Notes: generated by a model not told the origin, from the letters alone. Positions 29,343 to 61,208 are shown, counted from the first letter of the stretch. The stretch is DNA of 64,000 bases from an uncultured Nitrososphaerales archaeon (GCA_963841565.1 CAWJCY010000002.1:39573-103572); one strand, 5' to 3'. Numbers and translations: made by a program.

Positions 29343-29437
29343 CTATAAAGCAGTCTGCAGATTATATAGTCATATTAAAATCACAAAGAAAAACTGGAGC
29401 GTCAACCATTCGGAGCGTACACAAATTTGCTTTATTT

Positions 29438-40740: not shown

Positions 40741-40962
40741 TTATTTAACTTTGTATTCCTCGATCTCTTTCAGCACATTATTGTAAGCATTCATATCCAT
40801 GAAGGCTTTTCCTGCTTTCTCAAAATCATCCCGAAAATAGGCATCTTCAAACTCACTTCTTGCATTACTAAACTTATCTCGATAATACTGCACCAAACGA
40901 GCATTGGCATTTATTCTTATGTCGAGGATAATCCTGTCTCTTTCACTCGGGCCTTCTGACAT
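40741..40962 (-). CDS. Small hypothetical protein
   Basis: 73 aa ATG ORF preceded by a TATA-like sequence. Confidence 0.5.
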   Translation of the reverse strand: MSEGPSERDRIILDIRINANARLVQYYRDKFSNARSEFEDAYFRDDFEKAGKAFMDMNAYNNVLKEIEEYKVK

Positions 40963-41560
40963 AATGTAGCCTAAACCAAAGTATAAGGAAGAAGAATTAA
41001 AGTTTTGTTGCCTCTGGCTAAAAAATAACCTGAAGATAAACAGAAGGACATTTTTAGGATGAAGATAATTGATGATCTTGTATCCTCTTTACTTACCGCT
41101 GGAGAGAACCCTCCATCAACTTATGTTCTCAGTTCAAGAAAGGCAGAGCTGGGCTGTAGTCTCATTAGAAAGGAGCATTAGTTTGATCATATTTCATTAT
41201 AGCCGGTTAGAGAGGGACACATCTTCTTTAATCGGACCAACAGTTAACCATCTGAAGCAATCCATTAGCGTTTCTAATGATGTTTCCCACAAGCTAAGGT
41301 TGAAGAATGTAGAGAAGGAAGCAGATCAATTGGAGTATCTTTATCTTTTTAGTTGAAATAATATGCGTGGTAAGGAAAAAAAGAGACTCCTAGACTTCAT
41401 ATTGTCCAAGACTGCTAACGAACCTACACAAATCATCATTAACACCCTCAAACAAAAGAGGAGGGAATTGCACTTCAGCTTTGAGCCTGGGGTCGGACTA
41501 TCGAAAGAAATACACAATTGCACATTTCAGATAACATTGAACAATACAAATACCAATGCC

Positions 41561-41986
41561 TAAGTGTTTAGCATGTTCTGTATTTCGTTCAGTATTGGTG
41601 TTCTGTCGTCAGCATAGTTCTTACCCTTCGGTAATCCTCTTGTGAGCTTCCTTCAAGGTACATTGAGATCATTCTTTTCACAAAAGAGCTTCATGGCCTT
41701 AACGTAGTTACGAAGTATTGAACTTGTAATTTCCTTGTCGCTAATTCTAGCCTTCTGATGTTGAAGGAATTGGAACACTACGTCTATTAGCCATCTGTTT
41801 TCAGCTCTTGCCTTTTTTTGTAAATAATCTGTATATCTCCGGTATTGTAAACTTCTCTTGATCGATTCCAATAATTTCGAAGAACTTCATCCTTGAAACA
41901 TATTTTTCCCGGGTCTGTTCGGCGTTAATAGCAAATATGAATAATTCATAGGGTTCTGATTCCTTCCCTACGTCTAAATATGACAT
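41561..41986 (-). pseudogene. Tyrosine recombinase/integrase N-terminal remnant (frameshifted; catalytic domain absent)
   Basis: PYELFIFAINAEQTREKY...FF; LRNYVKAMKLFCEKND...P*RKLTRGLPKGKNYADDRTP resembles Nitrososphaera-type integrase N-termini. Confidence 0.75.
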
Positions 41987-42047
41987 ACTCAATCTGTTCT
42001 TTCTCTCTTTTCTGGTCGGAGATTCCCATTCGAGAACTAATGTTACA

Positions 42048-42064
42048 GTGGGCCCAAGGGGGTT
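42048..42064 (-). repeat. att-like site copy 1 (core only; + strand GTGGGCCCAAGGGGGTT)
   Basis: Core shared with 44294, 46499 and 59431; about 60 bp upstream of the integrase start. Confidence 0.7.
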
Positions 42065-42469
42065 ATATTCCCGTAGATAAGGGGGCTCATTACTAGTATT
42101 GGAGATTACCACCTAAAGAATGTTTCAGTTTATAGAACCATGCTATAATAGGCTTTACAGGCAGATAAATGGTTCATTAAAAAGCCTGTAAACTGTCTCT
42201 GCTCATTTCTCTTCATTTAACACTCTATTTCTTAGAACCGAATGAAGGTCAGATTTTGATAAACTTACTTTTCCTTCTAATGATATTATGTGAGCTATTT
42301 CATATCCTATAGCTGATACTGAGTAACCCCGGCAATCTTTCTATAAGTGCTAAAGTTGAAAATATCGCAAACCTCTCAAAATTACCTTTATTTGGATATA
42401 CATTGCTATAATATAGCAATCTAGATAGTGCCAATGCAGACTTTATACTTTGGTGGAAGATCCAGTTCT

Positions 42470-42787
42470 CTAACTGGTTACTCCATCACAGGATCCTAGA
42501 GCGGCAGTAATCTCGTCCGCAGATCGATATGCGCCTATACTTACCTGTGATAATACTTCGTTCCTACATAGCACATATGCCGTTGAATAGTGGCCTGAGG
42601 TGTATCCCATATATGCAAACCCGACGCCTATCAGTATTGACAATCCTACGACGAAGACGATCGTAAGCATCAATGTCCTATGGTTGGTCGTTAAGGGTTT
42701 ATCCGTAGGTCCTTCTTCCTTCTTTACTACTAGTTTTTTTACATACATCAGTTTACTCATAATGTCCAATATAGGAGCGATGCTCAA
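42470..42787 (-). CDS. Single-TM hypothetical protein
   Basis: One hydrophobic helix followed by a Cys pair. Confidence 0.6.
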   Translation of the reverse strand: MSIAPILDIMSKLMYVKKLVVKKEEGPTDKPLTTNHRTLMLTIVFVVGLSILIGVGFAYMGYTSGHYSTAYVLCRNEVLSQVSIGAYRSADEITAALGSCDGVTS

Positions 42788-43417
42788 TAAGTTTTGTATA
42801 TGCTGTTTATGATTAATAGAGAATCCTCCTTGTTTGAATAAAAGATTATGAATTATAATAACTCATTATTCTTCTTGATATGAATAATAGAAATATATAC
42901 AAAGGTTGCCAGAAAAACGTTTCCTAAATGTACATTAGGTTGTACCTAATATTCACCATTACTCACAATATGAGCGTTCAAGATCACGAACACATTACCT
43001 GCAGAACCAGAGTTGTTCTGTATCGTATAGGTATGGATTATATTTCTAGTGCAGTTCAAACATTTGTTGAACGGACTGCATTATCGTAAGCTCGGACATA
43101 GGTTCATTAGAGACTGTGAGATAAACTACCATTGATAAATGGAATGACCTTCTTGAAACCCAAGGTAAACCAACTAACAAATTCTATTAGTTCTATACAT
43201 TGGATACATCGGATAATCTATTGGGATTAACGCTCCTAAGTATTATCTTTGGTCTGCCAAGATTGTTCGTTACTGATTACCAAATAGTATGTTTAATCGT
43301 AATTCATCAACATACGTAGTAAGTGGTTATAACGATACTACATAAGAAACTGAAGCTACTATATGTATGAACTATAGATTAAGGAAGAAGGATGTAATTG
43401 GAGGTGTTTTACGGTAG

Positions 43418-43873
43418 TTGTTAAGTGTCATACGGTTTGGCGTAAAAACTTTTTTGTTCGAAAATCATGCCCTATTCTACATTGCCGCAACAACTACAAT
43501 GATTGCAGGCATTCTATACTTAATGATGATCGGGTCTTCATTGAAGCAGATTAATTTTCCCATGGAATTGCTTCCATACACTGATGGCTTATTCCTTGTA
43601 TCTGGAATAGCACAAATCTCCTGGACGATACCAATGGCATTAAACTGGAATACACGTTGGTTCTATGCAGGTCTAATTGGCACTATTGCATTAACCTCAC
43701 TGATAGCATTGACAAGGATTCCAAGTGAAATAACAGGCATAGCATTACAGGATAAGAATCCAATGGCTTTGTTAACCGAAGTAATGCAGACTACATATAT
43801 TTTTACAACGCTAACCATAATTCTTAACAAGAAGAGGGCGATCTTTAGATTAGTTACGCATCGAACATTATAA
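43418..43873 (+). CDS. Four-TM membrane protein
   Basis: IAGILYL, FLVSGIAQ..W, YAGLIGT, TR.P. Confidence 0.7.
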   Translation: MLSVIRFGVKTFLFENHALFYIAATTTMIAGILYLMMIGSSLKQINFPMELLPYTDGLFLVSGIAQISWTIPMALNWNTRWFYAGLIGTIALTSLIALTRIPSEITGIALQDKNPMALLTEVMQTTYIFTTLTIILNKKRAIFRLVTHRTL

Positions 43874-44293
43874 ATCCAATCATCAGATATTCCAATGTAA
43901 TGTTCTATTATTTTAGCTATTATAGACAGAGTCAGGCTAAATATGTGGCTCAAACCCTTGTTTGTAGCGTTCAGACCTGATCTTTGGGGCTATTTTATGA
44001 TTAGCTAACCAGTTTCTATTGTATAGTAGTATTGTATCGTCTAAGGTGAGAAAATTGATGGCTCTCAGATATTCTCCAAGAGTTCATTTTCAGTAATCCG
44101 GTAATAACCATCGGAGATTCCACTTGAATGCCGCTTATGATATGACATTGTTATGATAGTTAGAGACCTCGATGAACGCATAGGGAACGTAATTACTAAG
44201 GCAAGAGAACAAGATACATGCATTTCTCTCAAAATGAACGAGGTTGGAACACACTTCTATCAATTAAGAAAAAAATAAAACTTGAAATTGCAA

Positions 44294-44350
44294 TGGGCCC
44301 AAGGGGGGTTTGGCAAGACTTAAGTGTACTGAATATTTCACGAAGGATTC
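44294..44350 (-). repeat. att-like site copy 2 (~57 bp)
   Basis: + strand TGGGCCCAAGGGGGGTTTGGCAAGACTTAAGTGTACTGAATATTTCACG. Confidence 0.8.
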
Positions 44351-44594
44351 TTGCTCTGGTCATATAACATTCTTTTGCCTTACCAGGATCTCATCCCTGT
44401 GCATGCTTGCAAATAAAATCGATTACTTCATTACATATTTTTTAGTTTAAGATTAATTCGCATACAAGGAGGTCGATGTTTACATGAGGTTATTTTATTA
44501 ATATTGAACGGTCTAATTGAACGTTCTGAACAAATCATCAAGAATGCCCACAAGGTAAATCAATCTGTCATCTTGAACAAAAACGCGTTCAATT

Positions 44595-44796
44595 GCAGCG
44601 TTCAATTGATTTGAGCGTGAAACATAATGAATGGTAGTGATTATCTGTTAACGGTTAACAAATCTGTAAACGCAGGACAAACCTGTTAACGAAATTTGTA
44701 AACAGTCGTTAACGGACCCGCAGCATTCAATTGATTTGAGCGTGAAACATAATGAATGGTAGTGATTATCTGTTAACGGTTAACAAATCTGTAAAC
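44595..44796. repeat. 77 bp direct repeat (44595-44671 and 44720-44796, one mismatch) rich in GTTAAC/GTAAAC/GTTCAA
   Basis: Read directly from the sequence. Confidence 0.92.
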
Positions 44797-45405
44797 ACGT
44801 GTAAACCATAGGGACTTGGGTCCGCGAATTCCTCAAACTCCCGTTTACGAAACAATCGGAACCAACAACCGCCGTTCAGCGATTATATCTGGGATATCGG
44901 GGAAAAGAGTGAGATAATGCTTGATTCAATGATTGAACGAAGTTAGCGTAAATGCTCGTCGTCATGACAAGTTTGGAAACTAATTCATTTGGGTGATTTC
45001 ATAATGGTGTCAGATCTGTAGGCGAGTTATCCAACGTTCTGTCATGATCTAATAAATCAGATTTAATCTTAGTATCAAGAAAGCGCATTCACCACGGTGA
45101 AAGTTTTACTAGCATAATCTTACCTTACGCCATCGTGTTAATCTATGTTTCAAATATACGAACCCACGCACAAAATGGGGCCATTGGTTTGTGAACCAGA
45201 TTTGACGTAATTTCAAGGTCCCATTTCGGATGTATATCACTGGTCTGGGTCCGGCCTATTCGATCTTTTATGCCACTTATGTAGCCAGGATTGGAGGCGT
45301 CAGATGGGTGTTATCTTGGTCCTACCTTCTACTCTGGTGACAACGACTGATTAAATCATGGCAAGCCAGATAACTACGTACAAGGTATCTGATCAAGAAT
45401 TTATC

Positions 45406-46218
45406 CTACGCCTTCATCGCTAGTGTGAGGAGGTAGTCAAGCCTTGTCAAATTCTCATGTACGTAAGGTGTTATGGATCTAATAAAGTCATTTTCTAGTT
45501 CCTTGACCTTGGTAGGACTCTGTCCTCCAAGTGCTTGGATAGCACGTATCAGGGGCCCATATTTTGTACTAAACAAGTGCCAAAAATGATTTGGGCTCAA
45601 TACAGGAATGTTTACGGCGCCTCGTTCGAAGTGAAGATCCTTGACGTTGCTGCCGAGACGCTCCCGTACCATCTCTGGAATTCCCCATTGCATCGGAGAA
45701 GGAGGGCTGTTAGGAGGAGGTGGGACATGCCTTCCAATAGCTGCGAAGAACCTTCCTACGGCATTTTCAGGAGGCCAAGTCGTAAATGCAATAAAGCCTC
45801 CTACCTTTGTGACTCTGATGAGCTCTTCTGCAGCAATTGTTGGTCGAGGAGCAAACATATGTCCTAGACTTGAGAACACTATGTCAAATGAATTGTCAGG
45901 AAATGGAAAATCTTCAGCATCACCATGTTTCCACTCAATCCCTTCTATTAAACCAGCAAGGGCTGCTTCTTCCTTTGCACGTTCCAAAAGATCAGGTGTG
46001 ATGTCTATCCCAATTACTTTTGCCCCTGCTCTGCACGCAGTAATGGCTGTAATGCCAGTACCACATGCTACGTCGAGCACTTGCTCACCACGACTAACAC
46101 CAGTGGCTCGTACTAAGTGAGCAGACATAGGTGAAAGGAAGGTTGCTATGTCGTTATAAGATCCCAAGGCCCAAGTTGCCTTCGCTTTTTCCTTTAAATC
46201 TGCAACGGGGTCGCTCAA
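45406..46218 (-). CDS. Class I SAM-dependent methyltransferase
   Basis: VLDVACGTG, GIDITP, GDAEDFPFPDNSFD, GHMFAP. Confidence 0.92.
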   Translation of the reverse strand: MSDPVADLKEKAKATWALGSYNDIATFLSPMSAHLVRATGVSRGEQVLDVACGTGITAITACRAGAKVIGIDITPDLLERAKEEAALAGLIEGIEWKHGDAEDFPFPDNSFDIVFSSLGHMFAPRPTIAAEELIRVTKVGGFIAFTTWPPENAVGRFFAAIGRHVPPPPNSPPSPMQWGIPEMVRERLGSNVKDLHFERGAVNIPVLSPNHFWHLFSTKYGPLIRAIQALGGQSPTKVKELENDFIRSITPYVHENLTRLDYLLTLAMKA

Positions 46219-46498
46219 ATCAAATCTAGAAAGCCCTGCCCGATAATAAGGCTTATGTTCTATGGGATGACATCGCTATATTTTAGGCTACTCGAACAAA
46301 GGATCATCTAGAAAGCATGTAGTTCGTCTTCCACTGTCAACACCACCGCTGTACAGGATTCATAGATATAATATTGCCTTTGGTTTATTGATATAATACC
46401 CTTTTACTTATTGAAGACATCCAATCTCAAACTAATCAGTCATTGGATATTCTGTCAAATTACTAAAGTATCCAGAAACATATAAATCCACGTAGTAG

Positions 46499-46558
46499 GT
46501 GGGCCCAAGGGGGTTTGGCAAGACTTTAAAGTGTATTCAATAATCCATGCGGTTCCAA
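46499..46558 (-). repeat. att-like site copy 3 (~60 bp)
   Basis: + strand GTGGGCCCAAGGGGGTTTGGCAAGACTTTAAAGTGTATTCAATAATCCATGCGGTTCCAA. Confidence 0.8.
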
Positions 46559-46625
46559 TACGAGTTAATAGAGAGTTAGCAGTTTTCTTAGTTAAATTAT
46601 AGACCAGTCATTTTACATTTAGTTG

Positions 46626-49600
46626 TTATTGGTCGGTAAGCAGCAACATAAAGTAAAAGGTAGCTCCCTTTTCTCCATAAGCATCACTATTATTTTCAGC
46701 CCAAATCCTACCTCCATGTGCTTCTACAATATTTTTGGAGATGAATAATCCCAATCCAGTACCTTCGAAAGATTTTGCAGCGAATTTAGAAAACAATCTA
46801 GGTAGTATTTCATGGTCTATGCCTGACCCAGTATCTTTGATACTAACAATAACTTGATTGTCATTCCTTTGTGTACTAATAGTTATAGTTCCTTCTGTGG
46901 TAAATTTAATAGCATTACTTACTAGGTTAGAAACGACTTGGGTTATCCTGCTTCTGTCAGCTTCTAAAATAATATCCTGATTGCTGGGGCTATCTAATAA
47001 TTTTATGTCTCTATTATTTTTTTCAATTTCATTCTTATGGTCCTGAACAGTATTGGATATCAATTCATTCAGGTTAAACCTTTCCTTCTTTAGTTTTAAT
47101 GAATAACTTTCAATTCGAGTAACGTCCAGTATATCTTCTGTAAGTCGATGTAATCTCTTTGCATTTCTTATGATGGCATCTAGTATTTTTTGTTCGTCTC
47201 CTACTCCAGTCCCGCCAATGAGGGTTATTCTAGAACGAAGTATTTCAGATAAACCAAGTATTGGTTGAATAGGAGTACGTAGCTCATGAGCTGCTATATT
47301 GATAAAGTCATTCTGTATTTTGTTATGAACTTTTAGTTGTTCATTAGCCTCTGCAAGTTGTTTGTTTAATTCTTCTAATTGTTCATTCAACTCGGTTTGT
47401 TTCCAAAAACTTTCAAAAATAGAAATGTATGATGAAACAATTGAATTGCTATCAGAGTATGTAGTTAAACCTGCCGCATTGTAGGAATTATCTTCTGCGT
47501 CGTCCTTCGATTCTACAATAACACATTCCCTTCTGTCAACTAATACTATTGAGATTCTAGTCTGTAGGCTCCTATCTATCCTTCTAATATCAATCTGCGC
47601 AGGGATCGACTTCGTTTCCTTACCTATTATTGACATAATATTATCATCGTCTGCGGGAATTAGTACCCTTATCTTTGCGCTATTCTCCTCTGATGCTTTT
47701 TTTAAAAATTGAAGCCCACCCATCTCAAATAGGCTACGTGCAGCATTCGCTGAGGAAAACATTATCAATACTTCTTCTTTTGCTGATCTTATAATATTCC
47801 AAGCACGTTTTATTCCTTCTTTTGGATTTGAAATAATTTCTATATTAGCTTGGTCAACTCCTTCTTCAATCTCTCTTATTCTATCTGAAGCATCAATCCC
47901 ATTCTTCCACAACTCTTCAAAAATGGAAGCAAAATGATTAATGTATGCTAGTTCATTACTAACCAACAGACTCTGAGCCATCTCGCCACCTTCCATCTTC
48001 TCTATTGTGGCCATCATTACTTTATCTGAAACAGCGAAATCAATTGGCGGCATATTTTTGACATGTCTTATCTGTACACCTATATCCAGGAATATTCTAA
48101 CCAGATCTGCATTATCTTTGTCTTTAATAGAAGTAATCCATCTTATGCCTTGGTGTTGTCCATTTCTATATTTCAGCATAACTTCTTCGAACGTATCAAA
48201 GTAGTTGTTATAGACTAATCGCATTCCAGCAAATTTTGAACACGCTAAAAACTCTATAGAGCTCTCCAAAATGTCTTTTCCTTTCCTTAAGATTTCATCA
48301 ATGTTTTGTAATACCTTAATTTCTCTTAATACTGTTGACAGATATTGTTTCATGTCATGCTCCGTAAGAGAAAGTTGCACTCCAGTCTGCTCTGTCATGC
48401 CAGTTGCATGGTCTTTTGCCATCCTTATCACCTTTTTCTCTAATTTCTGCTCCATCTGATCAGATCCGACACCAACCAGTAGTTTTGATTCAGTTGCGGC
48501 AGATTTTCTAATCGCCTGACGTAACTTTACATCTTGAGACATAGAAATTGTTGAATAATAAATGCCAATTAGAATCAGATAGCATGATAATCCTACAAAT
48601 GAGACGCTGGCAAGTCCAAGAGGTGGATAAGAGGCTAGCATTACACTACCTGAAGTTGCTAGTGCAAAAAGCGCAAATCCAGATCCAGCAATAATCATAT
48701 AATCTTTTAATATACTACTATAGTTGAGTCTCCTTGCTATCATTAAAAAGGGAAGACCAAATAAGACGCTGCTGATTGCTGCTGGAATAGTATAGCCCAA
48801 GGCATCTACTATTATTTTGAAAATCGTGTCCATATCACTACTATCATGTGATACACTCATAACAAATGGAGTTACAATAACAAAAATACTTAGAAAAGAT
48901 GCTATAGGAATAGTGATGATAGCCCAGAATTTGACTTTGCCTAATTTTTTAGAATATGTATGTAGAAGCATGGTTGTGCTACCCCACAATAACAAAAAGC
49001 TCAAAATATGTGATACAACATAGACAATCTGGGCTATACCTGGTATTGTAGATTGATCAAATTTTCTGATATCTGGTCCATGGCCAACTTCTTCTTGTTC
49101 TGAATGGCCAACTTCTTCTTGTTCTGAATGGCCAACTTCTTCTTGTTCTGACGTAAGCTCTGTTGGCGATGGAGCTATTATCTCAGCGGGCATACCTTGT
49201 AGTATAACGGTGAAAAAAACAAGTGATGATACAACACTGAAACTAGTAATTATAGATGATATACCATAAAGCAAGACTACAGAATTCCTATTAGATTTGT
49301 ACCAAGAAAAAAACTCTAATGCGAGTGTCACCATTATAAAGCCCGCTACTGCATAACTGATGGACGAGCTCCAAGTTAACATAGATGTAGGGTAATAGGA
49401 GTATACAAACATTTGTAAAATAATGAATACAATAATGGCTGTCAGAACATACTGTACTATTGTCATTATTGTGTGTAGTCTATTAAAATGTGGAGACCGG
49501 AATCTTATGTTCTTACTTTTCTGTTTCACGAAATCTAAAATGAGATATTGTCCTGCTGCATATACAATTGCTATAGCAATAAATGCAGCAAAACCCCAAT

Positions 49601-49736
49601 TGGTAGATACGCTTATCATATCTGAAATATTGCTAAGTGATATATCTATTATTAACGCAGAAATTACAATTGAAATGATGACCAAAAATTTTCTACTGCT
49701 ATATCCTGTAACGCTTGCAGGCAAAAGAGAAGTCAT
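46626..49736 (-). CDS. Membrane sensor histidine kinase (multi-TM, two TrmB/PLD-like domains, HisKA/HATPase)
   Basis: AAHELRTP H-box, NLVSNAIKFT, DTGSG, GTGLGL; two domains ending FEELWK/FESFWK. Confidence 0.93.
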   Translation of the reverse strand: MTSLLPASVTGYSSRKFLVIISIVISALIIDISLSNISDMISVSTNWGFAAFIAIAIVYAAGQYLILDFVKQKSKNIRFRSPHFNRLHTIMTIVQYVLTAIIVFIILQMFVYSYYPTSMLTWSSSISYAVAGFIMVTLALEFFSWYKSNRNSVVLLYGISSIITSFSVVSSLVFFTVILQGMPAEIIAPSPTELTSEQEEVGHSEQEEVGHSEQEEVGHGPDIRKFDQSTIPGIAQIVYVVSHILSFLLLWGSTTMLLHTYSKKLGKVKFWAIITIPIASFLSIFVIVTPFVMSVSHDSSDMDTIFKIIVDALGYTIPAAISSVLFGLPFLMIARRLNYSSILKDYMIIAGSGFALFALATSGSVMLASYPPLGLASVSFVGLSCYLILIGIYYSTISMSQDVKLRQAIRKSAATESKLLVGVGSDQMEQKLEKKVIRMAKDHATGMTEQTGVQLSLTEHDMKQYLSTVLREIKVLQNIDEILRKGKDILESSIEFLACSKFAGMRLVYNNYFDTFEEVMLKYRNGQHQGIRWITSIKDKDNADLVRIFLDIGVQIRHVKNMPPIDFAVSDKVMMATIEKMEGGEMAQSLLVSNELAYINHFASIFEELWKNGIDASDRIREIEEGVDQANIEIISNPKEGIKRAWNIIRSAKEEVLIMFSSANAARSLFEMGGLQFLKKASEENSAKIRVLIPADDDNIMSIIGKETKSIPAQIDIRRIDRSLQTRISIVLVDRRECVIVESKDDAEDNSYNAAGLTTYSDSNSIVSSYISIFESFWKQTELNEQLEELNKQLAEANEQLKVHNKIQNDFINIAAHELRTPIQPILGLSEILRSRITLIGGTGVGDEQKILDAIIRNAKRLHRLTEDILDVTRIESYSLKLKKERFNLNELISNTVQDHKNEIEKNNRDIKLLDSPSNQDIILEADRSRITQVVSNLVSNAIKFTTEGTITISTQRNDNQVIVSIKDTGSGIDHEILPRLFSKFAAKSFEGTGLGLFISKNIVEAHGGRIWAENNSDAYGEKGATFYFMLLLTDQ
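49080..49151. repeat. 3 x 24 bp perfect tandem repeat encoding SEQEEVGH in a kinase loop
   Basis: ATGGCCAACTTCTTCTTGTTCTGA x3. Confidence 0.93.
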
Positions 49737-49931
49737 TTCCTGGTCATAGTCCCCTATAATTTACTTGCAACTAATAAATATGCTTTCTTCGGTAATACAG
49801 CTTAAAGAGGAACTTGAAACACATAGTCTCTTGTTTGAACACTGCGAGATACAATTTATCTCCAAATTGTTGTAATTGGAAACCCATATAGCATTTAGCC
49901 CCCTATGCTAATGGTATGAGAGGTGTAAGAA

Positions 49932-50249
49932 TTGAGCGCAGATTTTGTAAAGGTTGCTGAAACAAAAGACATCAAACCATCTACAATGAAAGCAATCGAC
50001 CTAGCAGGTGAGAGGGTTTGCATTGTTAATGTCGAAGGAAATTACTACGCAATAGGAAATGTATGTACTCACGTTGGTGGACCCCTAAATGAGGGTACAC
50101 TTGAAGGATACGATGTTGAGTGTCCTTGGCATGGTTCTAAATTTGATGTTAGGACAGGTAAGCCAACCAGACCTCCAGCACGCCAATCAGTTCCAACGTA
50201 TGTAGTAAAGATAGAAGATAATAACCTACTAGTTAGAAAGCAACAATGA
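49932..50249 (+). CDS. Rieske [2Fe-2S] ferredoxin
   Basis: CTH and CPWHGSKFD motifs. Confidence 0.93.
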   Translation: MSADFVKVAETKDIKPSTMKAIDLAGERVCIVNVEGNYYAIGNVCTHVGGPLNEGTLEGYDVECPWHGSKFDVRTGKPTRPPARQSVPTYVVKIEDNNLLVRKQQ

Positions 50250-50261
50250 CGAGGCCTACCA

Positions 50262-50663
50262 ATGAGTAACGGCCCTGATGAACGGGAAGAAACTCTTTGG
50301 CGTCATGATATCAAGAAGGGTTGGCTACGTAAAAAGGTCGTGTATTCTTACCTTATCACGAATAAGCGGATTGTATCTGGCTCTCAAGTCCTGAACTTGG
50401 ATGATGTGTCTGATTGTGTTTCTGTGAATGAAGAAAGGTTTTATGGAGGGGGAGTTAATAGTGTAGGAACTCATACAAGAGGACCTAACGCCCGTTTGAG
50501 TTCGTACCGTGGAAGAGGCCGCGTTATTGGTGATGTGATCTTTACGAGTCATTCAAACCAAGATACCATTTTTCATGATGTGCCTGACCCTGATGGTGTG
50601 GTTAGATTAGTCAAGACTTTAATGAAGCCTAGAAAGGGAAATGCGGAAGAGGATGGAAGATGA
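50262..50663 (+). CDS. Bacterial-PH-like domain protein
   Basis: EETLW, YLITNKRIV, IGDVIF, FHDVPDP. Confidence 0.65.
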   Translation: MSNGPDEREETLWRHDIKKGWLRKKVVYSYLITNKRIVSGSQVLNLDDVSDCVSVNEERFYGGGVNSVGTHTRGPNARLSSYRGRGRVIGDVIFTSHSNQDTIFHDVPDPDGVVRLVKTLMKPRKGNAEEDGR

Positions 50664-51100
50664 CTGAAAAATATCTTGGACGCAAAAAAAGTATGCCCAA
50701 GGGTGTATGAACCATATTTTACTCAAAGTTAGGTTTCGAAACAGCCCAAGTTGGATTTAGGATTCTAAATATTTCGATCGGTATTCGCTCAATGTAAAAA
50801 AGCGAAGACATTAGTCTTCAATTTAATTTTTTTGTTTCTTTCGGCGGAATGCATTTAGAGGCAAAGGATTCTCCATACTGAAGTGACTAACCTTGGAGAT
50901 AAATCTATTTAATGCGATGACAATAATGAACTGACTATCTTTATACAGCACTGACCCATAATTCATGTCAAGCAAATTCTCATTTAAGGCAAATATCCTA
51001 TTTTTTTGATGATATTATAATTAAGTGCGAGTAATCTAGCAAATCATTCATTTTACAAAATAATGTCAATAACTTCACGTAGTTGCGAAGTGGGACTTGA

Positions 51101-51793
51101 TCAAATTAATAGTGAATAAAAGTGTTCATCATCTAAACGTAATCTATATATCTTGTTACTCTTAGTCAAGAATACTGTATTATGAGCATTAAACAATTCA
51201 AATAAATCGTCAAATGATCCGGCAAGAACAGTTTTTGTGTTCGCAATACAGTAAGTAATTCCTGGTAGAGATTTACTCTCATACCACTCACAAACCCCTG
51301 CAGCCTTTTTTACAGATCCTTCACGAGAGATATCTTCAACTAAGAAAGTAATTATCAGTGGTAATAGATTCATATTATCTCTGTTTCTGCCGTTGCTTCT
51401 TCTTTCCTCAATTTTGCTATTGATAGTATCAAGAACTTTAATCGCCGTTTCTTGTGGTTTCTCCAAAAACTGTTCATAACGTTCACCTGCTGCATCAACC
51501 CACCTTTTCTTATTTAGAATTTGTATACCAGGATGTTTCGCCGGACCACAATATGATTTGAGCCAAATGTCTGAGGCCAGCTTATCAATTTCGTCCAGTA
51601 ATTTCTTTAATGATATTTGATCAGAATACAAGATCAAGTTGTGCCTGTGTTTATTCTTTTCGTAATTCTTAATCCACTTATCAATAGCATCCGTTACGAT
51701 TGAAGAGAGGGTAGTTCGATCATTTGTGGCAATTTGAGCAGCCTTTGCATGAAGTTTTTCATCGAAACCTCGAACAAACAAGTCCTTTACCAT
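51101..51793 (-). CDS. Ribbon-helix-helix protein fused to a MEDS-like domain
   Basis: DLFVRGFDEKLH...TLSSIVTDAIDKWI RHH pattern; HNLILY...YC...HNTV sensor-like part. Confidence 0.7.
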   Translation of the reverse strand: MVKDLFVRGFDEKLHAKAAQIATNDRTTLSSIVTDAIDKWIKNYEKNKHRHNLILYSDQISLKKLLDEIDKLASDIWLKSYCGPAKHPGIQILNKKRWVDAAGERYEQFLEKPQETAIKVLDTINSKIEERRSNGRNRDNMNLLPLIITFLVEDISREGSVKKAAGVCEWYESKSLPGITYCIANTKTVLAGSFDDLFELFNAHNTVFLTKSNKIYRLRLDDEHFYSLLI

Positions 51794-51823
51794 ACTATTT
51801 TTTTCTCAATTGCTATTATTAAG

Positions 51824-51878
51824 GATATCTAGATATCTAGAATCGATAGAATTAAATATCAGATATCTAGATATCTAG
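51824..51878. promoter_or_regulatory. Two blocks of (GATATCTA)2 palindromic repeats next to a TATA-like box: likely operator
   Basis: GATATCTAGATATCTAG at 51824-51840 and 51862-51878. Confidence 0.65.
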
Positions 51879-52272
51879 TTCATGGTGAATTGTCTATGTC
51901 TCTGTTACTAGATATAGTGCATGAAACAGATTGGGCTCATTGGTAACATGGGAGAACCATGTACTACTTCATTCCTCCTCTAAAAGATCACGTTTTGATT
52001 CCTTTATCCTATCATAGTTCGATTTAACGGGGAATGTACCAAAAGCAGGCATTTCAATGGATCCGGCTGAACCACTCCCGGAAAATAGATCTGAATCAGG
52101 CGATGAATTTGAAGACTAGATAGGTGAAACGAAATCGCAAAAATTATCCGGGATGAATAATATGATTGTAGCACTTGAGTCACACGGCTCAGTTTCCTCC
52201 GAAAAATTTCAGGCAATTGGATATGAGTGGAAATAAGTATATTTTATAAGGAAATTTGACCCGATGGGTAGA

Positions 52273-52461
52273 CTATATTATATGATGTTTGATAGCACAA
52301 TCTTTATGGTAATAGTGTCTAGGTCGTCCACTGCTAACCACGACATGATCATTAGTTATACGTTGTTTACACGAAACGCATTTCCCATTCTGTTTCTCTT
52401 CAATCAATTTTAGTATCCGGTTTATTCGTTCATGTGGATAAATCGTTAATGGTTGATTCAA
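52273..52461 (-). CDS. Small zinc-binding protein (CxxC...HxxC)
   Basis: CVSC and YYHKDCA; overlaps the stop of the upstream gene. Confidence 0.7.
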   Translation of the reverse strand: MNQPLTIYPHERINRILKLIEEKQNGKCVSCKQRITNDHVVVSSGRPRHYYHKDCAIKHHII

Positions 52462-52772
52462 TTCTTTGGTCTAGAAAATATAGAAAGCAGTATAGGCAGG
52501 AGCATCTTAGGCTCTTGCTCTTCGGGGATAATTTCTTGAGCTACTTTATTTAAATCTAAAGCTTCATTCCCATAAGCTTGTAGACCGTACTGTATGCAGT
52601 CACTACAGGTCACTTCTACAAATGAATACTTTAGCCCATTCTCTAGAACTGTTAAACTCGTAGATATCTTGGTAATATTATTTAAACGCGATAAGTCGCG
52701 TAGCGCTTCTATGCTGCTGCCATAACCAGTAGGCATATCGGATAGTATCTCTTTCTCCAACTCGCATTCCAT
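52458..52772 (-). CDS. Hypothetical protein
   Basis: 104 aa ORF coupled to the downstream gene. Confidence 0.65.
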   Translation of the reverse strand: MECELEKEILSDMPTGYGSSIEALRDLSRLNNITKISTSLTVLENGLKYSFVEVTCSDCIQYGLQAYGNEALDLNKVAQEIIPEEQEPKMLLPILLSIFSRPKN

Positions 52773-53372
52773 TCGTGTCGAAGAAGATTAATGCTATTCA
52801 CAGGTGGCTATGACGAATCATGACGTAAGCTTACAATTCATAGCATAAACAAAATCAACTAACGTCTAAGGCTTTTTTTTTGCTCTGAATCTTGACCGTC
52901 AACTAGAATGTATCACACTACAAAATCTGGCTATATTAATTATAATCAAAATATAGCCCATAGAAGAGGAAATTGATCTACCGCTTGCTCTATCTAATTT
53001 ATCCTGAGGAGCTCCTATCGCCTGGCATATAATCACAACATGATAACACTAATCGTGTAGCTTCTGGGCTTGGAGCGATCGTAGGATGTGCTACACGATA
53101 CAATAATGAACTTTGAAGAATGTACGAAGGTGATGAGACAGAGGGAGAGTCAGACGATAACGAATGTAGACTTAGAGAGGGTTGGCTAATTAGGGTGCTG
53201 TAACAAACTATCTTAAATCCATGATTGGTTGACATCGGTAATGGTACGTGACTCAGTTCAAGTCAAAATCTAGTTGCATTCAGATCATCCCCCTACAGGT
53301 TGAGACCTTGCAATCGGGTTGAATTTGGGTTGAATTTGGAAATGATTTGGGAAATCCCATAAGTAGTATTTC

Positions 53373-53858
53373 ATGAAGGTCTTTGTAATGAGTCTAGTAG
53401 AACAGGTAAGGGATCAAATCTGCAGTAGGAGCTATTCTGATATAGAGGCCGCGAATCTCGACACTTCATGCCCATCATGGAATGACAAGACTATATTATT
53501 AGTTGATGATCAGATTGATGTACTTATTACTATTAAGATTATGCTCGAAACATGTGGCTATGCAGTCAATGCATTTAATGATCCTTTACTGGCATTGGAT
53601 CATTTTAGAAGACATTCGCATGACTACAGGATAGTAATTTCTGATATGATACTGCCATCCATGTCTGGCCTTGAATTTATAAAGAAAATCAGGATAGTGA
53701 ATCCCGAAATAGTAACATTCATCATAACGGCATTGGATAACATAAAGGATATTAGCAAGGATCTGTTATACGATTCGACAGTGTTTCAATTAGATGGTAT
53801 CATTCATAAACCAATTTTATTGGATGATCTATGTAGATCGGTAGGGAAAAGGAGATAG
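53373..53858 (+). CDS. Response regulator receiver protein
   Basis: ILLVDD, VISDMILPSMSG, ITA, KP. Confidence 0.88.
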   Translation: MKVFVMSLVEQVRDQICSRSYSDIEAANLDTSCPSWNDKTILLVDDQIDVLITIKIMLETCGYAVNAFNDPLLALDHFRRHSHDYRIVISDMILPSMSGLEFIKKIRIVNPEIVTFIITALDNIKDISKDLLYDSTVFQLDGIIHKPILLDDLCRSVGKRR

Positions 53859-53860
53859 GG

Positions 53861-55021
<1,161 letters not shown>

Positions 55022-55097
55022 GGACAAATACTATAAGTACAGCAGTTAATTTAATCGATAGATAATGCACAACACTATCAGTATGATTTAATAATTT

Positions 55098-55757
55098 ATG
55101 GAAAATTGTGCAGGGTGCGGTTTTGACCTAAAAGGAACTGAAAAGTTCTGCCCTTCCTGTGGAAATTCTGTTTCTGCAGACCACTCTTCGTAAGCCGAGA
55201 TCATTCTAGATATAACTCTCCATATCTTTTTAGAAGCCATTAAGACTAACCTTGAAAACCCTTTGGTTATAAAAGTGGGAGGGGCTAGTCTTGACTTTTA
55301 CCCTTACTATGTCATTGAGTATAAATTAGAGATATCCAAAAATGATCCTTCAGGTAAAAAGCACAATATTCAGAACCAAGAAATAGTTATTGTGGATGCT
55401 TTCAACGGTGAATTGTTATCGTTATCCGATAAGAAGAGGACTAAGGTTGTGAACAAACTCAATCCGTTCCTTTCTCAAAGGAATGCGGATTTAGCATCTA
55501 GTGACATCGCAGAAAGAAATCAGATCACTAATGATTTGAAAAATATCGAATCTATAGTGAATCTTAAATTACATCCTGCGGGAGATTATGCGATTAACCT
55601 TATCGATAATAAGGTATCACCTGATTTAGGGAAATTAGTATTACCGCCATGTGATGGAAGGTTTCAAGACTGTATAACTAGGAATGGCCATTTCTGCAAT
55701 GCGGGAGATACTACAGAGAGTACATGTGATGTAGAGACGATACGAGTGATCTCCTAA
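55098..55757 (+). pseudogene. Zinc-ribbon protein remnant with in-frame TAA at 55191, probably chimeric
   Basis: MENCAGCG....EKFCPSCG is in frame with ORF 55263-55757. Confidence 0.55.
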
Positions 55758-55953
55758 TCATTCTAAGTATTAAGAACTAGTAAAAAAGTATAAAGAGAGA
55801 GCGGTATAAGATAAAGATGATTGAGAATTGATTAGTAGAACAAAAGCAGTATCTCTATTAGTAGCAATCTTCACATCAGCCATATCGGCATTACCTATAG
55901 CGTTTGTGGGTACTTGGTGTACTAGAAAATGCACAAGACTGGTATGATGCGGG

Positions 55954-58561
55954 TTATGAAGATGGGCGAGACTCCCCTACTGAAGGTGGAGCAACGTCAT
56001 CACCATCTTCCTCATCGCCTGGTCTACCGGCGTCTTCCCAATCTTCTTGTGCTTGTTCTGCTTGCTCCTGTAGACTTCCTCCATAATCACCTTCAGTCCA
56101 ACCATCATCTTCGGTACTGACCATCTTATCAGAAGCAGTTGGCGTAAGGGTAGTAGCAGGAGCAAGAGTATTAATACCACCTGAAGCAGGATCTATCTCA
56201 ACTATTTGGGCTGAACGCATCACAATTCCTGGAGCCGCATCAATCCGGATATTAACTTCATCCTCATCTACCTGTGGTCTGAATCCATCAACACCATTTG
56301 AGCTTTCTACATCTTTTGTCCATCCTGACCCTTTATTGCTATACATCTCTAGCTTCTCTCCTTTTCCGATATTTACAGCTGCTAATTTAACAGGAGTATT
56401 GACAAGATTACCGATACTGTTTCCAGTAACAACACATAGATCAGTTGATGGATGATCCTCTTCTTTTCCAATACAGGCCTCACCTGATTCAAATGAGTAA
56501 GTATTGTCATACCAGCCGCTGCCCATATGAGTGCCTCCAAACTTGAAACTTATAGTGTCATCGTGATCGATCTCCGTTAGAGTGATGTCTATTATGATCG
56601 CGTAATTTTGAGCAGAAGTTTCTCCACTCCATTCATGAGTTATGTCGTCAGGTTTTCCTGAGGCGTAGTGTCTGGTTCCCCAACCTTCATCCTCCATGTC
56701 TTGAGGTGAGCCAACGAATGCATATGGAAAATTATTATTGGTTGGAGGAGGCGGAGTAGTGGATGTCTTTGGTCCCATTACAAATGCTTCTAGTCTTCCA
56801 TTAGTATTAGGTACTACTGCTGGATCAGTATTATCTCTCAAGCCTCCACCAAGTGAAGTCCATGATGAGGACCAGGTATTGCCGTTAGGTGAGGACTGTG
56901 TCTTGTAGTACCAGCTGATTATTTGCACCTACAACAAACGCCTGCAATCTACCATCGTTATTTCTTGCAACAGCTGGACTTGTATCTGCTTTTATTCCTC
57001 CACCCAGAGAAGTCCATGCTGGAGACCAGGTATCGCCGTTAGGTGAGGACTGTGTCTTGTAGTACCAGCTGATTATTTGTACCTACAACAAACACCTGCA
57101 GCCTACCATCGTTATTCGCTATTACTATTGGATCTGTATTGGCTCTCAAACCTCCACCCAGGGATGCCCATGCTGGAGACCATGTGCTGCTACCAGCTGC
57201 TGTCTGAGCTCGGTATTGTAATTGGTTATTTGTACCTACAACAAACACCTGCAGCCTACCGTCACTATTTCTTGCAACAGCTGGACTTGTATCTGCTTTT
57301 ATTCCTCCACCGAGGGATGTCCATGCTGGAGACCAGGTATTGCTGTTAGGTGAGGACTGTGTCTTGTAGAGCAGCTGATTATTTGTACCTACAACAAACA
57401 CCTGCAGCCTACCATCGTTATTTGCTATTACTATTGGATCTGTATTGGCTCTCAAACCTCCACCCAGGGATGTCCATGCTGAAGACCATGTGCTGCTACC
57501 TGCTGCTGTCTGTGTCTTGTAGTACCAGCTGATTATTTGTACCTACAACAAACACCTGCAGCCTACCGTCACTATTTCTTGCAACAGCTGGACTTGTATC
57601 TGCTTTTATTCCTCCACCGAGGGATGTCCATCCGGTCCAAGTGCTGCCTACCTGCTGCTGTCTGTATCTTGTAGTACACCTGATTATTTGCACCTACAAT
57701 AAACACCTGCAGCCTACCATCGCTATTCATGGCGATAGCCGAATCAGTGTCAGGTGCTACGTCACCACTAAGTGATGAGTAAGGAGACCACGTACTACCA
57801 CCGGCTGTGGTTTGCAATTTATGGAAGAGGGTTCCTATTACATTGCTGCCACCGCCACCGCCTCCTCCACTAGTAGCGCCACCGAAGACAGAAATTTCAT
57901 TAATGCTTGCCCAGTCATTTTCCGTATTACCATTTACGGTAATTCGTACGTATCTTCCTTCAGTACCTCCAGGTAAGGTATATTTCTCAGCAGCTGTACC
58001 AAGACTGCTAGTATCAGTGAGTTTATTAGTGAAGGTAGTACCATCATCTGATACAGATATCACGAAATTATTTTGTCTAAGATCGCCACGGTACCAAGGA
58101 ATATCGACGCTGCATATGCTCTTCTTTGAACCCAGGTCAAGTTGAATCCATGATCCCTGTCCGAGATTAGACCATCTGGTATTCAAATTATTATCTATTA
58201 CATTGGACGGGATGTTACCATCATTTCCAATAGCAGTGACGGAGGTTACAGGCAACTTTTCACATGTTGCTAGTGTGGATACAGTACTCTCCAATAGTTG
58301 CAGCTCTTCAGGTAAGCTTTCTAAACTGTAGGTCGTATTTTGGAGATTTGCTTTTGTATTAATAGAGAGATCGGTAGTACCGGTCTCAATTGGTATCCCA
58401 ATAGGAATATCATACTTATTATCTATCGAGGAAGGTTTGAGAGATGGGAAGGCACTTAAATTGCTGTATCCAAGAGGAGACAAGATTAGTATCATCAAAA
58501 TGAGGTGCAAAGCACACTTCCGGGTCGATATCCATTCGTAAATATACAGTAATTTGTCCAA
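55954..58561 (-). pseudogene. Secreted protein with F5/8 type C (discoidin) domain, lectin-like beta-propeller repeats and acidic tail; four +1 frameshifts
   Basis: DNNLNTRWS..GSWIQLDLG, RYVRITV; about 7 repeats of W.SLGG....P......DGRLQVFVVG.NN.L. Confidence 0.8.
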
Positions 58562-59430
58562 TTCCTTTATTGAAATAGATCAATATCTATTTACGCAGAA
58601 CACCTAATTTTGTTCTAGATCCGATCATGATATTTTTTATCAAAGAAACATTCGTAAATATATACAGTATAACCCATTCGTGAACTATAGAAATGTATTT
58701 GGAATAGTAACGATTCTTCTATAAACATGTTAATGTACTGCGATGATTGGGGGGTATTAACACAATTAGATCAGATACGGTTAGGAATAATTTTTACTAA
58801 GAATTGATGTACAACTGACTAGAAATATTCTGCAGAGGTTTGTTCCTTTGTTTTTACAAAAAATCCAATAATCATTGAAGATATACTAGTCCTCATCTGC
58901 ATTATCATCTTTGACTTGCCTTCCGTGTAACCACTACGTCTGGAGGCAAGATGTGTGGTGGGTTGAATAATAATAGACTGTTTTTATCCATTCGTCTTTT
59001 TATTTGGTTAGAATAAGGAGCTTCCCATTAATAGCTTGGTAACAAGTAATAACATGACAGAAATATCAAAAATAGTATAATTACATTTGCCGTCACCCAC
59101 ACCTTTTATATAACAAAGAATAAACCAATTGATAACTACGTATTTCGAATATTTATGATCTTTAAGAAAAGAATACTCTCTTCTGTGCCGCTTCCTTAAT
59201 CTTTTTCGTACTTGTCTCAATCGTTGTGTCAACACATTCTGAGTCAATAGTTTGACTTTAAAAGCAGAAAAAAAGGTTGCCTGGAGCAGCCTTGGTAATT
59301 AAAGATTTGAGACTTTTTATGAATATACTGATAAGAATTGCCAGGCAGTGTCAGTTGAAACATTTTGTCTCTAAACACATGGAACTAGATGCTGTAAACC
59401 AGCTGTAAGTGCTTTGAACCAACTTTAAAT

Positions 59431-59489
59431 TGGGCCAAAGGGGGTTTGACAAGACTTTATAGTGTATTAAAAGATTCACGAGGTTCCAA
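59431..59489 (-). repeat. att-like site copy 4 (~59 bp)
   Basis: + strand TGGGCCAAAGGGGGTTTGACAAGACTTTATAGTGTATTAAAAGATTCACGAGGTTCCAA. Confidence 0.8.
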
Positions 59490-59526: not shown

Positions 59527-60051
59527 ATGAGAATTTCATCACAAATGGAAAAAGCGATCAATGATCAAATTGCTTATGAAGCATCAGCTATCAATGCATA
59601 TGTTGCGACGGGATCATGGTGTGAAAGAACTGGATACGACGGAAGTGCAGCATTCTTTTTCGAACAAGCAGTTGAGGAAAATATACACATGTTAAAGTTC
59701 GTTCATTATCTTAATAATGCTGAGGCCGAAGCTATAATTCCAGCAATAGAAAAACCTCAAGGTAAATTCGATTCACTAGAATCTACTTTTCATTCCGCTT
59801 TAAAGAGTGAACAGACTGTTACAAAGCTCATCAACAATTTAGTAGAAATTGCCGACAAAGAAAAAGACCGTGCTACATACTTGTTCTTACAATGGTTTGT
59901 AAGCGAACAGGTAGAGGAAGAGATCCTATTTCAATCAATTCTTCAAAAGTTTGAGATATTTGGAAGAGAGAAATTGGCGGTATATCAAATTGATCAATCC
60001 CTGGCATCAATTAGATCTCAGGTTATGGCTAAGAAGCAGATCTCTCGTTGA
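59527..60051 (+). CDS. ftn: Non-heme ferritin
   Basis: INDQIAYE, Y, QAVEENIH, SE, FLQWFVSEQVEEE ferroxidase ligands. Confidence 0.92.
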   Translation: MRISSQMEKAINDQIAYEASAINAYVATGSWCERTGYDGSAAFFFEQAVEENIHMLKFVHYLNNAEAEAIIPAIEKPQGKFDSLESTFHSALKSEQTVTKLINNLVEIADKEKDRATYLFLQWFVSEQVEEEILFQSILQKFEIFGREKLAVYQIDQSLASIRSQVMAKKQISR

Positions 60052-60286
60052 TCTCACTTTTTGTTTAGAATATTTCGATTAGGCTAATGGATGGTTAATA
60101 ATTAAGTAGGTCCATGGGAGTCCGGAGTAATATTGATTCTGTAACGGGATTCCGATAATTAGAAACGATAGACTATCATAAAAAGTTTATTCTCACTTGA
60201 TATTAATTTTCTGGTATTATTATTCAAAGTTAGATTACCGTGTTGCTCCCGGTCAGCTCGATTCTCGTGTCCACCCGATTGATAAT

Positions 60287-61208
60287 TCACTTATTTTGGC
60301 TTGTATTCGATATAAATGTATTTAATATCTTACTGATTTCATCCGGATATTGAACCATTACTGCATGACCAGCATCTTTTATCTGTACAAGCCAGGCTTC
60401 AGGGATCTTTCCTGCAAGAATTAAAGAATTAGCTGGTGCCATCGTAAAATCATCGGTTCCAGTTATGATCAAAGTAGGATTGGATATTTTTGAAAGTTCA
60501 TCACAAATGCCATTCCAGTTGGTTGCTCTCCAGTTTTCTACAACCTTATACTGCTGCACCAGAGTATTAAGGGGAATATTAGTGTACAAATCTTTTGCTT
60601 CTGGGAGGGTGTCAAGAGATTCAGAATGCAGTTTGATCCATGCTGGTCCTAACGCGGTAGGCGCCATCAGCTTTATTTCCTGCTGAGTAATGGGAATATT
60701 ATTTAATGATTTATTTATAACCTCCCTACCAAGTTTTGCAAGTTGAGGACTTGGAGGTATACTCTCTTTCCCACCACATGTCGTTGTGACAAGTATAAGT
60801 CTGTTAAACTTTTCTGGATGTGTAACTGCAACCTGTTGAGCAATTATTCCGCCCATAGAATATCCAAAGGCATCTGCCTGCTGTATTTTCAGAGCATCCA
60901 TTAAACCAGCCGTATCATTGGCAAGTAGCTGAACAGTATATGGTTTGAAACTAGCTGTTGTATTTCCAATTCCACGACTATCAAACACAATTACTGTGTG
61001 ATTTGAAGAAAGACCTTTTAAAAAGACGGGTCCCAGGCATCCATACCATCATAAGGCCATTAAAAAGTAAAATAGGGTCACCTTTACCAAACATCTTGTA
61101 CGCAATATCAATATCTCCTACAGGGACTTTTTCTAATGGGATAGTTTGTATATTTACCGAATTCGTAGTATTGGAATTCATTTGGTCTGGATCTATTTGA
61201 CCATACAC
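60287..61208 (-). pseudogene. Alpha/beta hydrolase with frameshifts at ~61015-61050
   Basis: IAYKMFGKGDP.., FDSRGIG, GYSMGG nucleophile, GTDD, AGH. Confidence 0.8.

Follow-up and report, generated by a model that had tools for sequence, protein, structure and literature searches.

The window analysed here is a 64,000-nt stretch of an uncultured Nitrososphaerales archaeon (GCA_963841565.1, CAWJCY010000002.1:39573-103572), and site coordinates are window positions unless a contig is named. In its right-hand part, short repeated sites resembling the attachment (att) sites of integrative elements lie among unrelated genes and remnants of tyrosine-integrase genes. The core of these sites, TGGGCCCAAGGGGG(G)TT(TG), was 16-19 nt long in the window and occurred at 42049-42064, 44294-44312 (with one additional G), 46500-46517 and 59431-59448 (with one mismatch), on the + strand in every case. 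Degenerate sites at 50692 and 60103-60140 brought the number of window sites to six, none of them within a credible gene. A 13-nt core pattern (two mismatches or fewer) matched the window four times against 0.32 matches expected, a number reached in none of 100 shuffles. A 26-nt pattern of core plus arm (three mismatches or fewer) matched three times against 0.00 expected; these three matches were the sole ones in the complete 2.05-Mb assembly, and all were forward. To the right of the core, the arm GCAAGACTTTAAAGTGTATT..TCACG.GGTTCC aligned at 44313-44350, 46518-46558 and 59449-59489 (alignment A1). An earlier note on this DNA had claimed a co-oriented repeated site that interrupts no gene, an extension shared by the copies at 44294, 46499 and 59431, and a possible degenerate copy at 50691. 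Orientation, shared arm and uninterrupted genes all held, and the degenerate copy is real, though of another arm class (X2, below). The further degenerate site at 60103-60140 had been overlooked.

The core proved to be a copy of a tRNA 3′ end, as the same note had suspected. ARAGORN and Rfam found no tRNA and no RNA family in the window itself. On contig C1 of the same assembly (G000), ARAGORN predicted a tRNA-Met(CAT) gene at 13101-13176 on the minus strand, a prediction repeated on locus L049, and Rfam RF00005 confirmed this gene at 69.9 bits. The label tRNA-Met stands for a CAT tRNA, for which either elongator Met or Ile2 is possible. The core was the reverse complement of the final 18 nt of the gene, matched exactly. 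At 46500 the exact match covered 30 nt (C1:13091-13120), including 12 nt beyond the tRNA gene, and window 46463-46517 was 87% identical to C1:13066-13120, so that the likeness extends beyond the tRNA into its downstream DNA. The anchoring tRNA lies on C1, that is outside the window, and the array on contig C2. The four cores and two degenerate sites are direct repeats, in a single orientation, that match a tRNA 3′ end, as in a tRNA-anchored array.

All cores with two mismatches or fewer in the window, in the head of C1 and in loci fetched from relatives (genomes are numbered G, contigs C and loci L) were read on the tRNA strand as X side, core and Y side; in the window, all cores and arms read in this way lie on the minus strand. 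The X side was either the intact tRNA-Met body (G000:C1, G003:C10 at 850.6 kb, G004:C59 and G016:C14) or one of four recurring arms: X1 (..CACTTTAAAGTCTTGCCA), the arm of the sites at 44294, 46500 and 59431; X2 (..AAGTCAAAAATGGTTCA), that of the degenerate site at 50692; X3, found at 42049 and in G010:C23; and X4, found at the degenerate site 60103-60140 and at two G003 sites. The Y side comprised four arm classes: F, at 46463-46499 and downstream of the C1 tRNA; Y0, at 59413-59430; Y1, at 42002-42048; and Y2, in relatives only. X1 contained the palindromic ACTTTAAAGT, which is similar to an archaeal TATA box. F had also been considered as the native chromosomal flank of the tRNA; this was rejected, F being present at several G003 loci and leading into an integrase.

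The first window site was an X3-core-Y1 junction whose core (42049-42064) is an exact 16-nt copy of the tRNA-Met 3′ end. Over 47 nt, its integrase-proximal Y1 arm (42002-42048) shared 87% identity with Y1 of L034, and its X3 arm (42065-42090) shared 92% with X3 of L032 over 24 nt, with likeness visible further out; the same junction recurs in G010:C23 (L032). The core at 44294-44312 was joined to an X1 arm at 44313-44350. At 46500-46517, an exact 18-nt core formed an X1-core-F junction, with an X1 arm (46518-46558) 91-93% identical to X1 of L034 and L022 and a stub of the F arm (46463-46499); no integrase follows this stub, and a methyltransferase gene recognised by Pfam (45406-46218) is found there instead. 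The degenerate core and X2 arm at 50692-50745, where the core pattern is matched with two mismatches, did not align with the three X1-arm sites and shared GCCCAAGGG.GT.TGAACCAT.TTT with five X2 sites of relatives (alignment A4). At 59431-59448 the core joins X1 (59449-59489, from sequence alignments) to Y0 (59413-59430), a cognate pair as described below; this Y0 arm was 94% identical over 17 nt to the Y0 arm beside the tRNA-Met of G003. The last site (60103-60140) consisted of an F-like stub, a broken core and an X4 arm with a 15-nt exact match to X4, and was homologous to G003 sites at ~1044.4 kb and 1018.5 kb.

In total, 33 distinct junctions were distinguished, one of them (L008) from the unpublished genome G013; because similarity to X1 and F sites had guided the choice of loci, the proportions that follow are biased accordingly. 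The X side was the tRNA body in 4 junctions, X1 in 19, X2 in 5, X3 in 2, X4 in 1 and another sequence in 2, and the Y side was F in 10, Y0 in 3, Y1 in 9, Y2 in 3 and another sequence in 8. X1 was partnered by F (5), Y0 (1), Y1 (5), Y2 (2) and others (6); X2 by F (2), Y0 (1) and Y1 (2); and the tRNA body by F (2), Y0 (1) and one other. The arms re-assort freely around one core, which is the outcome that recombination between different elements at the core yields.

When each X arm was reverse-complemented and scored against each Y arm as an inverted repeat, two pairs stood out: X1/Y0, with z scores of 5.3-6.9 (CTTTAAAGTG..TTCAA), and X4/Y1, with z scores of 5.9-7.1 (GTAATATT..TTCT..GGATTCT). Every other X/Y pair scored 3.7 or below. 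At the actual junctions this symmetry was mostly not significant, and it emerged only when cognate arms were paired. By this measure of sequence symmetry X1 belongs with Y0 and X4 with Y1, and the inverted-repeat arms are likely to be the integrase-binding sites of two attP types. If so, the site at 59431 (X1-core-Y0) would join like elements and those at 42049, 46500 and 60103 would be hybrids. A half-core variant, CACACCC, accompanied X2 in four of five relatives and was present in degenerate form at window 50692; because this variant half travels with the X2 arm, strand exchange most likely takes place within the CCCTTGGGCCCA part of the core.

Integrase genes or their remnants stood on the Y side of the cores. 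Beside the intact tRNA-Met of G003 (L024), a 406-aa (amino acid) open frame starts 42 nt past the Y0-side core. It scored 35.4 bits against PF00589, above the curated cut-off of 27.1 for this catalytic domain, and archaeal XerA was its sole PDB sequence match (E = 1e-3). A 415-aa frame (L034:1333-2577) lies 55 nt after an X1-core-Y1 junction in G007:C203; it had no Pfam match on its own and a weak NCBIfam XerA match, and its alignment with the 406-aa protein spanned 388 residues at 29% identity (E = 7e-40). A search around the cores with both proteins and an F-type fragment placed a same-strand integrase homologue no more than 1.8 kb away on the Y side in 14 of 27 cases, compared with 1 of 26 on the X side. 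Only three of the 14 were full length (L024, L033 and L034). Integrase start and core were 42-60 nt apart at Y0 and Y1 arms and ~310 nt apart at F arms, the latter in C1, G003 and G004. On C1 the DNA after the tRNA-Met begins with F, continues with an integrase disrupted into three overlapping frames and goes on for ~12 kb with element-like genes. The Y side, where these integrases stood, is the tRNA-proximal end of a unit, and integrase fragments were kept there at three of the six window sites.

All integrase copies in the window were fragments without a complete catalytic domain, recognised only through their intact homologues in congeners. The longest, on the minus strand at 41569-41992 (aa 1-143), begins at 41992, 56 nt after the 42049 core, and matched the 415-aa L034 integrase in tblastn at 68% and 67% identity (E = 1e-48), which agrees with the integrase remnant claimed earlier near 42048. 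Its frame is shifted near 41814 and interrupted by a stop near 41656, and the catalytic domain is absent; its congener homologues sit in open frames of 399-476 aa. A C-terminal remnant at 44024-44130 (minus strand; aa 318-353, HS.GISD.YY region; tblastn, 75% and 53% identity, E = 3e-6) spans the catalytic-tyrosine region and lies only 164 nt from the core at 44294, so the gene has been internally deleted. At 59285-59381 (minus strand), an N-terminal remnant of the 406-aa Y0 type (aa 8-39; tblastn, 61% and 71% identity, E = 9e-4) begins at 59381, 50 nt after the core at 59431. A weak integrase-like stretch at 51037-51306 (minus strand; aa 34-112, 31% identity, three stops, tblastn E = 2e-4) was not relied on. 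Pfam (E up to 10) and PHROGs yielded nothing usable for the short open reading frames (ORFs) beside the sites, and a search with PF00589 over the whole G000 assembly gave two sub-threshold matches only, both outside the window. Elsewhere in the genome, G000:C12:110302-110713 carries an integrase remnant (38-43% identity to the 415-aa integrase, aa 63-200) immediately downstream of a tRNA-Lys(CTT) gene, c[110961-111054]; it is a second tRNA-linked integration scar.

Hybrid X/Y junctions, and integrase genes or remnants that keep a constant distance from the core on one of its sides, show that tyrosine integrases generated the window sites by site-specific recombination. Since att is not within the integrase gene, these are not self-splitting integrases of the SSV type; that type was tried and rejected, the core being upstream of the complete 406- and 415-aa frames.

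A complete unit was present in the congener G003, in which a single contig holds the tRNA-Met, an array of ~198 kb and the conserved flank. The order on G003:C10 was tRNA-Met, Y0, the 406-aa integrase, 13 kb, X1, a variant core, Y0 and an integrase C-terminal stub, the last ~35 codons of another integrase. Pfam matches among the 13 frames of the 13-kb unit were a UPF0060 membrane protein, a SIS protein and two receiver-domain proteins. This layout makes X1 the distal end of a Y0-type element, and the earlier suggestion that the ~40-nt extension is element-derived is borne out, X1 being the distal end of the integrase-bearing 13-kb element beside the G003 tRNA-Met. Altogether, the G003 array contained nine core+X1 matches, seven on one strand and two weak ones on the other.

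Both borders of the array could be placed by comparison with relatives. DNA upstream of the tRNA on C1 (13253-16261) was 81-86% identical to that just upstream of the G003:C10 tRNA-Met. On the other side, window 30002-35595 was 80% identical to G003:C10:1049210-1054632, window 36985-37085 matched G003:C10 at ~1,048,932, and window 34876-37085 matched G003:C10 ~198 kb beyond the tRNA-Met. Synteny with G003:C10 and G012:C40 ended at 37085-37090, the stop codon of a REC-domain gene (36611-37090, + strand) that is the last of the conserved chromosomal flank. This REC-only gene belongs to a large multi-copy family with dozens of matches (73-82%) across the genus, including G000:C8 and C12. Within the window, the variable island occupies 37091-64000: it begins where the conserved flank stops and continues up to the end of contig C2, which is also the end of the window. 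Its GC (guanine plus cytosine) content was mostly 0.34-0.39, with spikes to 0.51, compared with ~0.40-0.43 upstream. G000 has the same two borders on C1 and C2, in matching orientation, with an island that extends from C1:13100 down to 1 and from window 64000 down to 37091, at least 40 kb. From this arrangement, the G000 array very probably starts at the C1 tRNA-Met and ends at window 37090.

Between the borders, homology to relatives broke at the sites. On G012:C40, a flank homologous to window 27970-37090 (73-87%) was followed by 9.3 kb unlike the window array, and homology restarted exactly at core 59431 with a module of core, X1 and ferritin gene (92%). Homology on G008:C6 likewise started at core 59431, and window 44293-44966 matched several congener loci at 84-95%, the matches beginning at core 44294. 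Gene content varied in this way between relatives, with breakpoints at att sites. An empty site was sought in five genomes of other genera of the family, which gave scattered 65-82% matches and no synteny.

Set against the genome and its relatives, the consensus was forward-only in the assembly and concentrated in congeners. A 100-nt core+X1 query around 46500 matched 12 of 13 congeners (one of them G013, unpublished), up to 14 times per genome, and weakly matched 3 of 27 other genomes at E <= 0.01. Among representatives of 185,579 species, the exact 33-nt X1+core occurred at 13 loci in eight assemblies, all titled Nitrososphaerales, Nitrososphaeraceae or Thermoproteota metagenome-assembled genomes. 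In IMG/VR, the exact X1+core had no locus and the 406-aa and 415-aa integrases had no relatives, so no free viral or plasmid form was found there. At least half of the sampled words of window 41500-50500 were held by 19 sequencing runs from 14 studies, with no RNA run listed among the runs holding words of this region.

The genes between the sites lay on both strands. The ferritin gene (59527-60051, + strand; PF00210, E = 7.6e-33) is the terminal cargo beside X1 and follows the last clear site (59431), as the earlier note had stated; it has its own TATA-like box ~30 nt before the start. The core-X1-ferritin module was 91-96% identical in at least nine congeners, one of which is the unpublished G013. 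In four of five aligned copies the likeness stopped at the core, with different Y arms beyond (alignment A3). The far edge of the module was inconsistent: two of three relatives ended just past the stop codon, and none had a core there (alignment A2). A second ferritin copy at G000:C12:16807-17413 was 93% identical to the window copy, with matching sequence no further upstream than window 59475; it retains the distal part of X1, lacks the core and the palindrome, and is probably another scar. The closest relatives of the kinase, methyltransferase and membrane-protein genes were scattered in other genomes. Behind the X1 arm of the 44294 site, the block 44313-44966 had no ORF of at least 60 aa (none within 44300-45400) and could be a non-coding element end or a decayed gene.

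Three other features of the window were recorded. A 1.15-kb stretch at 53897-55047 (ORF 53861-55021, + strand) had three more G000 copies at 97-98% identity (C6:34962-36100, C4:12442-13533 and C12:347738-348830) and congener copies at 84-89%. Its 386-aa frame matched UDP-glucose/GDP-mannose dehydrogenase domains, and four near-identical copies of such a dehydrogenase gene are unusual for a 2-Mb genome. An alpha/beta-hydrolase gene at 60287-61208 (minus strand) was split into overlapping frames (60287-60988 and 60981-61208) and is probably a frameshifted pseudogene. A DUF1326 gene (61851-62531) lay in a 1-kb stretch with a GC content of 0.51, compared with 0.35-0.42 nearby, and this stretch looks recently acquired from a GC-richer source.

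We hold with considerable confidence that the sites are att junctions of a tandem array of integrative elements, built at the 3′ end of one tRNA-Met(CAT) gene and now largely decayed. Each element would have brought an attP with the order X arm, core, Y arm and integrase, its core copying the last 16-22 nt of the tRNA, and the tyrosine integrase would have recombined this core with the chromosomal core or with the core of a resident element. Core-to-core recombination of this kind would leave co-oriented cores, each bordered by the X arm of one element and, on its other side, by the Y arm of the following one. Later deletions would have taken most integrase genes and element backbones, and what remains between the scars would be cargo (ferritin, histidine kinase, methyltransferase, lectin-like and membrane proteins) and pseudogenes. 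The earlier note had proposed capture at one locus in the manner of an integron or of a tandem accretion island; hybrid junctions and breakpoints uphold the accretion, and the integron or cassette part fell away, no attI, intact integrase or attC folding being found.

Several observations weigh against a decayed tandem array. The assembly, which is 88% complete, yielded no intact member of these integrase families, and present activity is unsupported. Apart from integrase fragments, Pfam and PHROGs detected no mobile-element hallmark gene in the window array, and several array genes have close homologues elsewhere in the chromosomes of relatives (the kinase has one in G003:C5, for instance, and the methyltransferase one at G003:C10:1114 kb), so that each segment can only be presumed to have once been a full element. 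The link between C1 and C2 comes from synteny, no overlap of 15-200 nt being found between the C2 end and any contig end, and no terminal att was found at the left border, within 37091-41568. The 33 junctions are not an unbiased sample. Finally, an X2 arm without a core lies at C1:806-835, opposite in orientation to the tRNA-Met array: either the head-to-tail picture is incomplete, or there is more DNA or a rearrangement between the contigs. The arm itself suggests an inversion or an illegitimate junction inside the island.

The ferritin module invites a different explanation, an integron-like system in which short modules tagged by X1-core are mobilised in trans by element integrases, with X1-core serving as attC. 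Single-gene cassettes would then have been inserted at the tRNA-Met site, and the 663-bp ferritin segment, which does lie between two cores in the window (59431 to ~60112), would be an example. The identity of core, X1 and ferritin in at least nine congeners (91-96%) exceeds that of the neighbouring conserved flank (73-89%); the module stands beside different Y arms in different genomes, its homology stopping at the core in four of five copies; and X1, at ~40 nt, leads into at least four unrelated sequences. Against this, the far edge of the ferritin module is inconsistent and has no core in three relatives, and the kinase homology in relatives does not extend to X1-core. Neither a resident intact integrase nor attI nor a common promoter was found, only integrase fragments, whose place within the array fits the decay of whole elements. 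Genes on both strands and a ferritin with its own TATA-like box also speak against cassettes, as does the absence of attC-like folding (z from -0.87 to +0.66 at three sites on both strands). On balance the integron-like system appears improbable, and it is similarly unlikely, if marginally less so, that X1-core (55-60 nt) is a portable recombination tag with which modules were moved in trans between species of the genus. Were this true, the tRNA-Met site would be an archaeal, tRNA-based counterpart of the integron platform, growing to ~200 kb.

Two further explanations were considered, and we regard both as very improbable. The TATA-like X1 palindrome ACTTTAAAGT, one copy of which is 38 nt before the ferritin start codon, might mark an operator and TATA box of a regulon, or the sites might encode a small RNA, the tRNA likeness being incidental. 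Two of the three X1 copies have no downstream gene on that strand, however; the upstream region of the second ferritin copy (C12) is kept only from window 59475, without the core and the TATA-like palindrome; there was no Rfam match and no folding signal on either strand; and neither the tRNA match that runs 12 nt past the gene nor the integrases that specifically flank one side would be accounted for. The sites could also be an artefact of metagenome assembly or binning, with chimeric joins at repeated sequences of 18-60 nt, which can mis-join short-read contigs, and the assembly does consist of 13 contigs with an estimated contamination of 4.4%. Chance joins are hard to reconcile with the recurrence of X3-core-Y1, X1-core-F and like junctions in independent assemblies, or with a G003 array on one 1.13-Mb contig; the 19 runs from 14 studies that each hold half or more of the sampled words of 41500-50500 may point the same way.

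A decayed tandem array has counterparts in other systems. Bacterial tandem islands at tRNA and tmRNA genes have co-oriented repeats of the tRNA 3′ end, an integrase at the tRNA-proximal end of each unit, hybrid junctions and decay. The array described here is like them in those features and unlike them in its archaeal host, and its integrases are remote relatives of those in bacteria (a score of 35 bits to PF00589, with XerA the sole PDB sequence match). In Sulfolobus, gene capture by integrated plasmids and viruses at tRNA genes was reportedly described by She et al. in 2001-2004. Common to that case and the present one are integration at a tRNA, later loss or breakage of the integrase, and foreign genes trapped between direct repeats. 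Unlike there, where SSV-type integrases are said to split their own gene, the att site here lies 42-60 or ~310 nt upstream of an unsplit gene, and it is much shorter. Chromosomal integrons share the co-oriented array of short recombination sites between unrelated genes. They differ in that intI, attI and the common promoter Pc were not found here, the sites are tRNA-derived and non-folding, genes lie on both strands with their own promoters, and integrase fragments are scattered in the array.

The closest likeness is to thaumarchaeal cryptic elements as described in the main text of Krupovic et al. 2019 (PMC6563490), which likewise have a tyrosine integrase beside the att and a short att at a tRNA 3′ end. 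According to that text, thaumarchaeal att sites have a median length of 17 bp (16-22 nt here), 57% of integrations are in tRNA genes, and the tyrosine-recombinase elements of Thaumarchaeota form arrays by re-use of sites. Element sizes of ~13-17 kb are given there, compared with the 13-kb unit of G003, and cargo with stress and metabolic functions is described there too. Unlike those elements, the present ones are mostly scars, in an uncultured Nitrososphaeraceae genus outside that survey, and one tRNA-Met site has accumulated at least six junctions over 27 kb of window sequence, and ~198 kb of DNA in a congener. The term 'tRNA-Met' is absent from the main text of that paper. Tandem integration in archaea, loss of the integrase after integration and the exchange of modules in tandem arrays are known from sections of PMC8371274. 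The present case is an extension of a known mechanism, not a new one; what it adds is the size of the array, the use of a single tRNA throughout the genus and the two pairs of arms.

In practical terms, island borders in further assemblies from the group could be recognised with the help of the arm and core definitions. Ammonia-oxidising archaea are not known to have genetic tools, and candidates for such tools are the 406- and 415-aa integrases together with their short sites. For an integration hot spot of uncultured soil Nitrososphaeraceae, the analysis resolves an anatomy of core, two cognate arm pairs and integrase families. Elements that integrate at a tRNA and then decay are a well-known route by which genomes gather foreign genes, and an array of this kind would explain the patchwork of unrelated genes and pseudogenes in the window. 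Its weight in the genome can be considerable, the G003 array making up ~5% of that assembly (198 kb of 4.1 Mb). One tRNA-Met gene would be a main entry point of foreign DNA throughout the genus.

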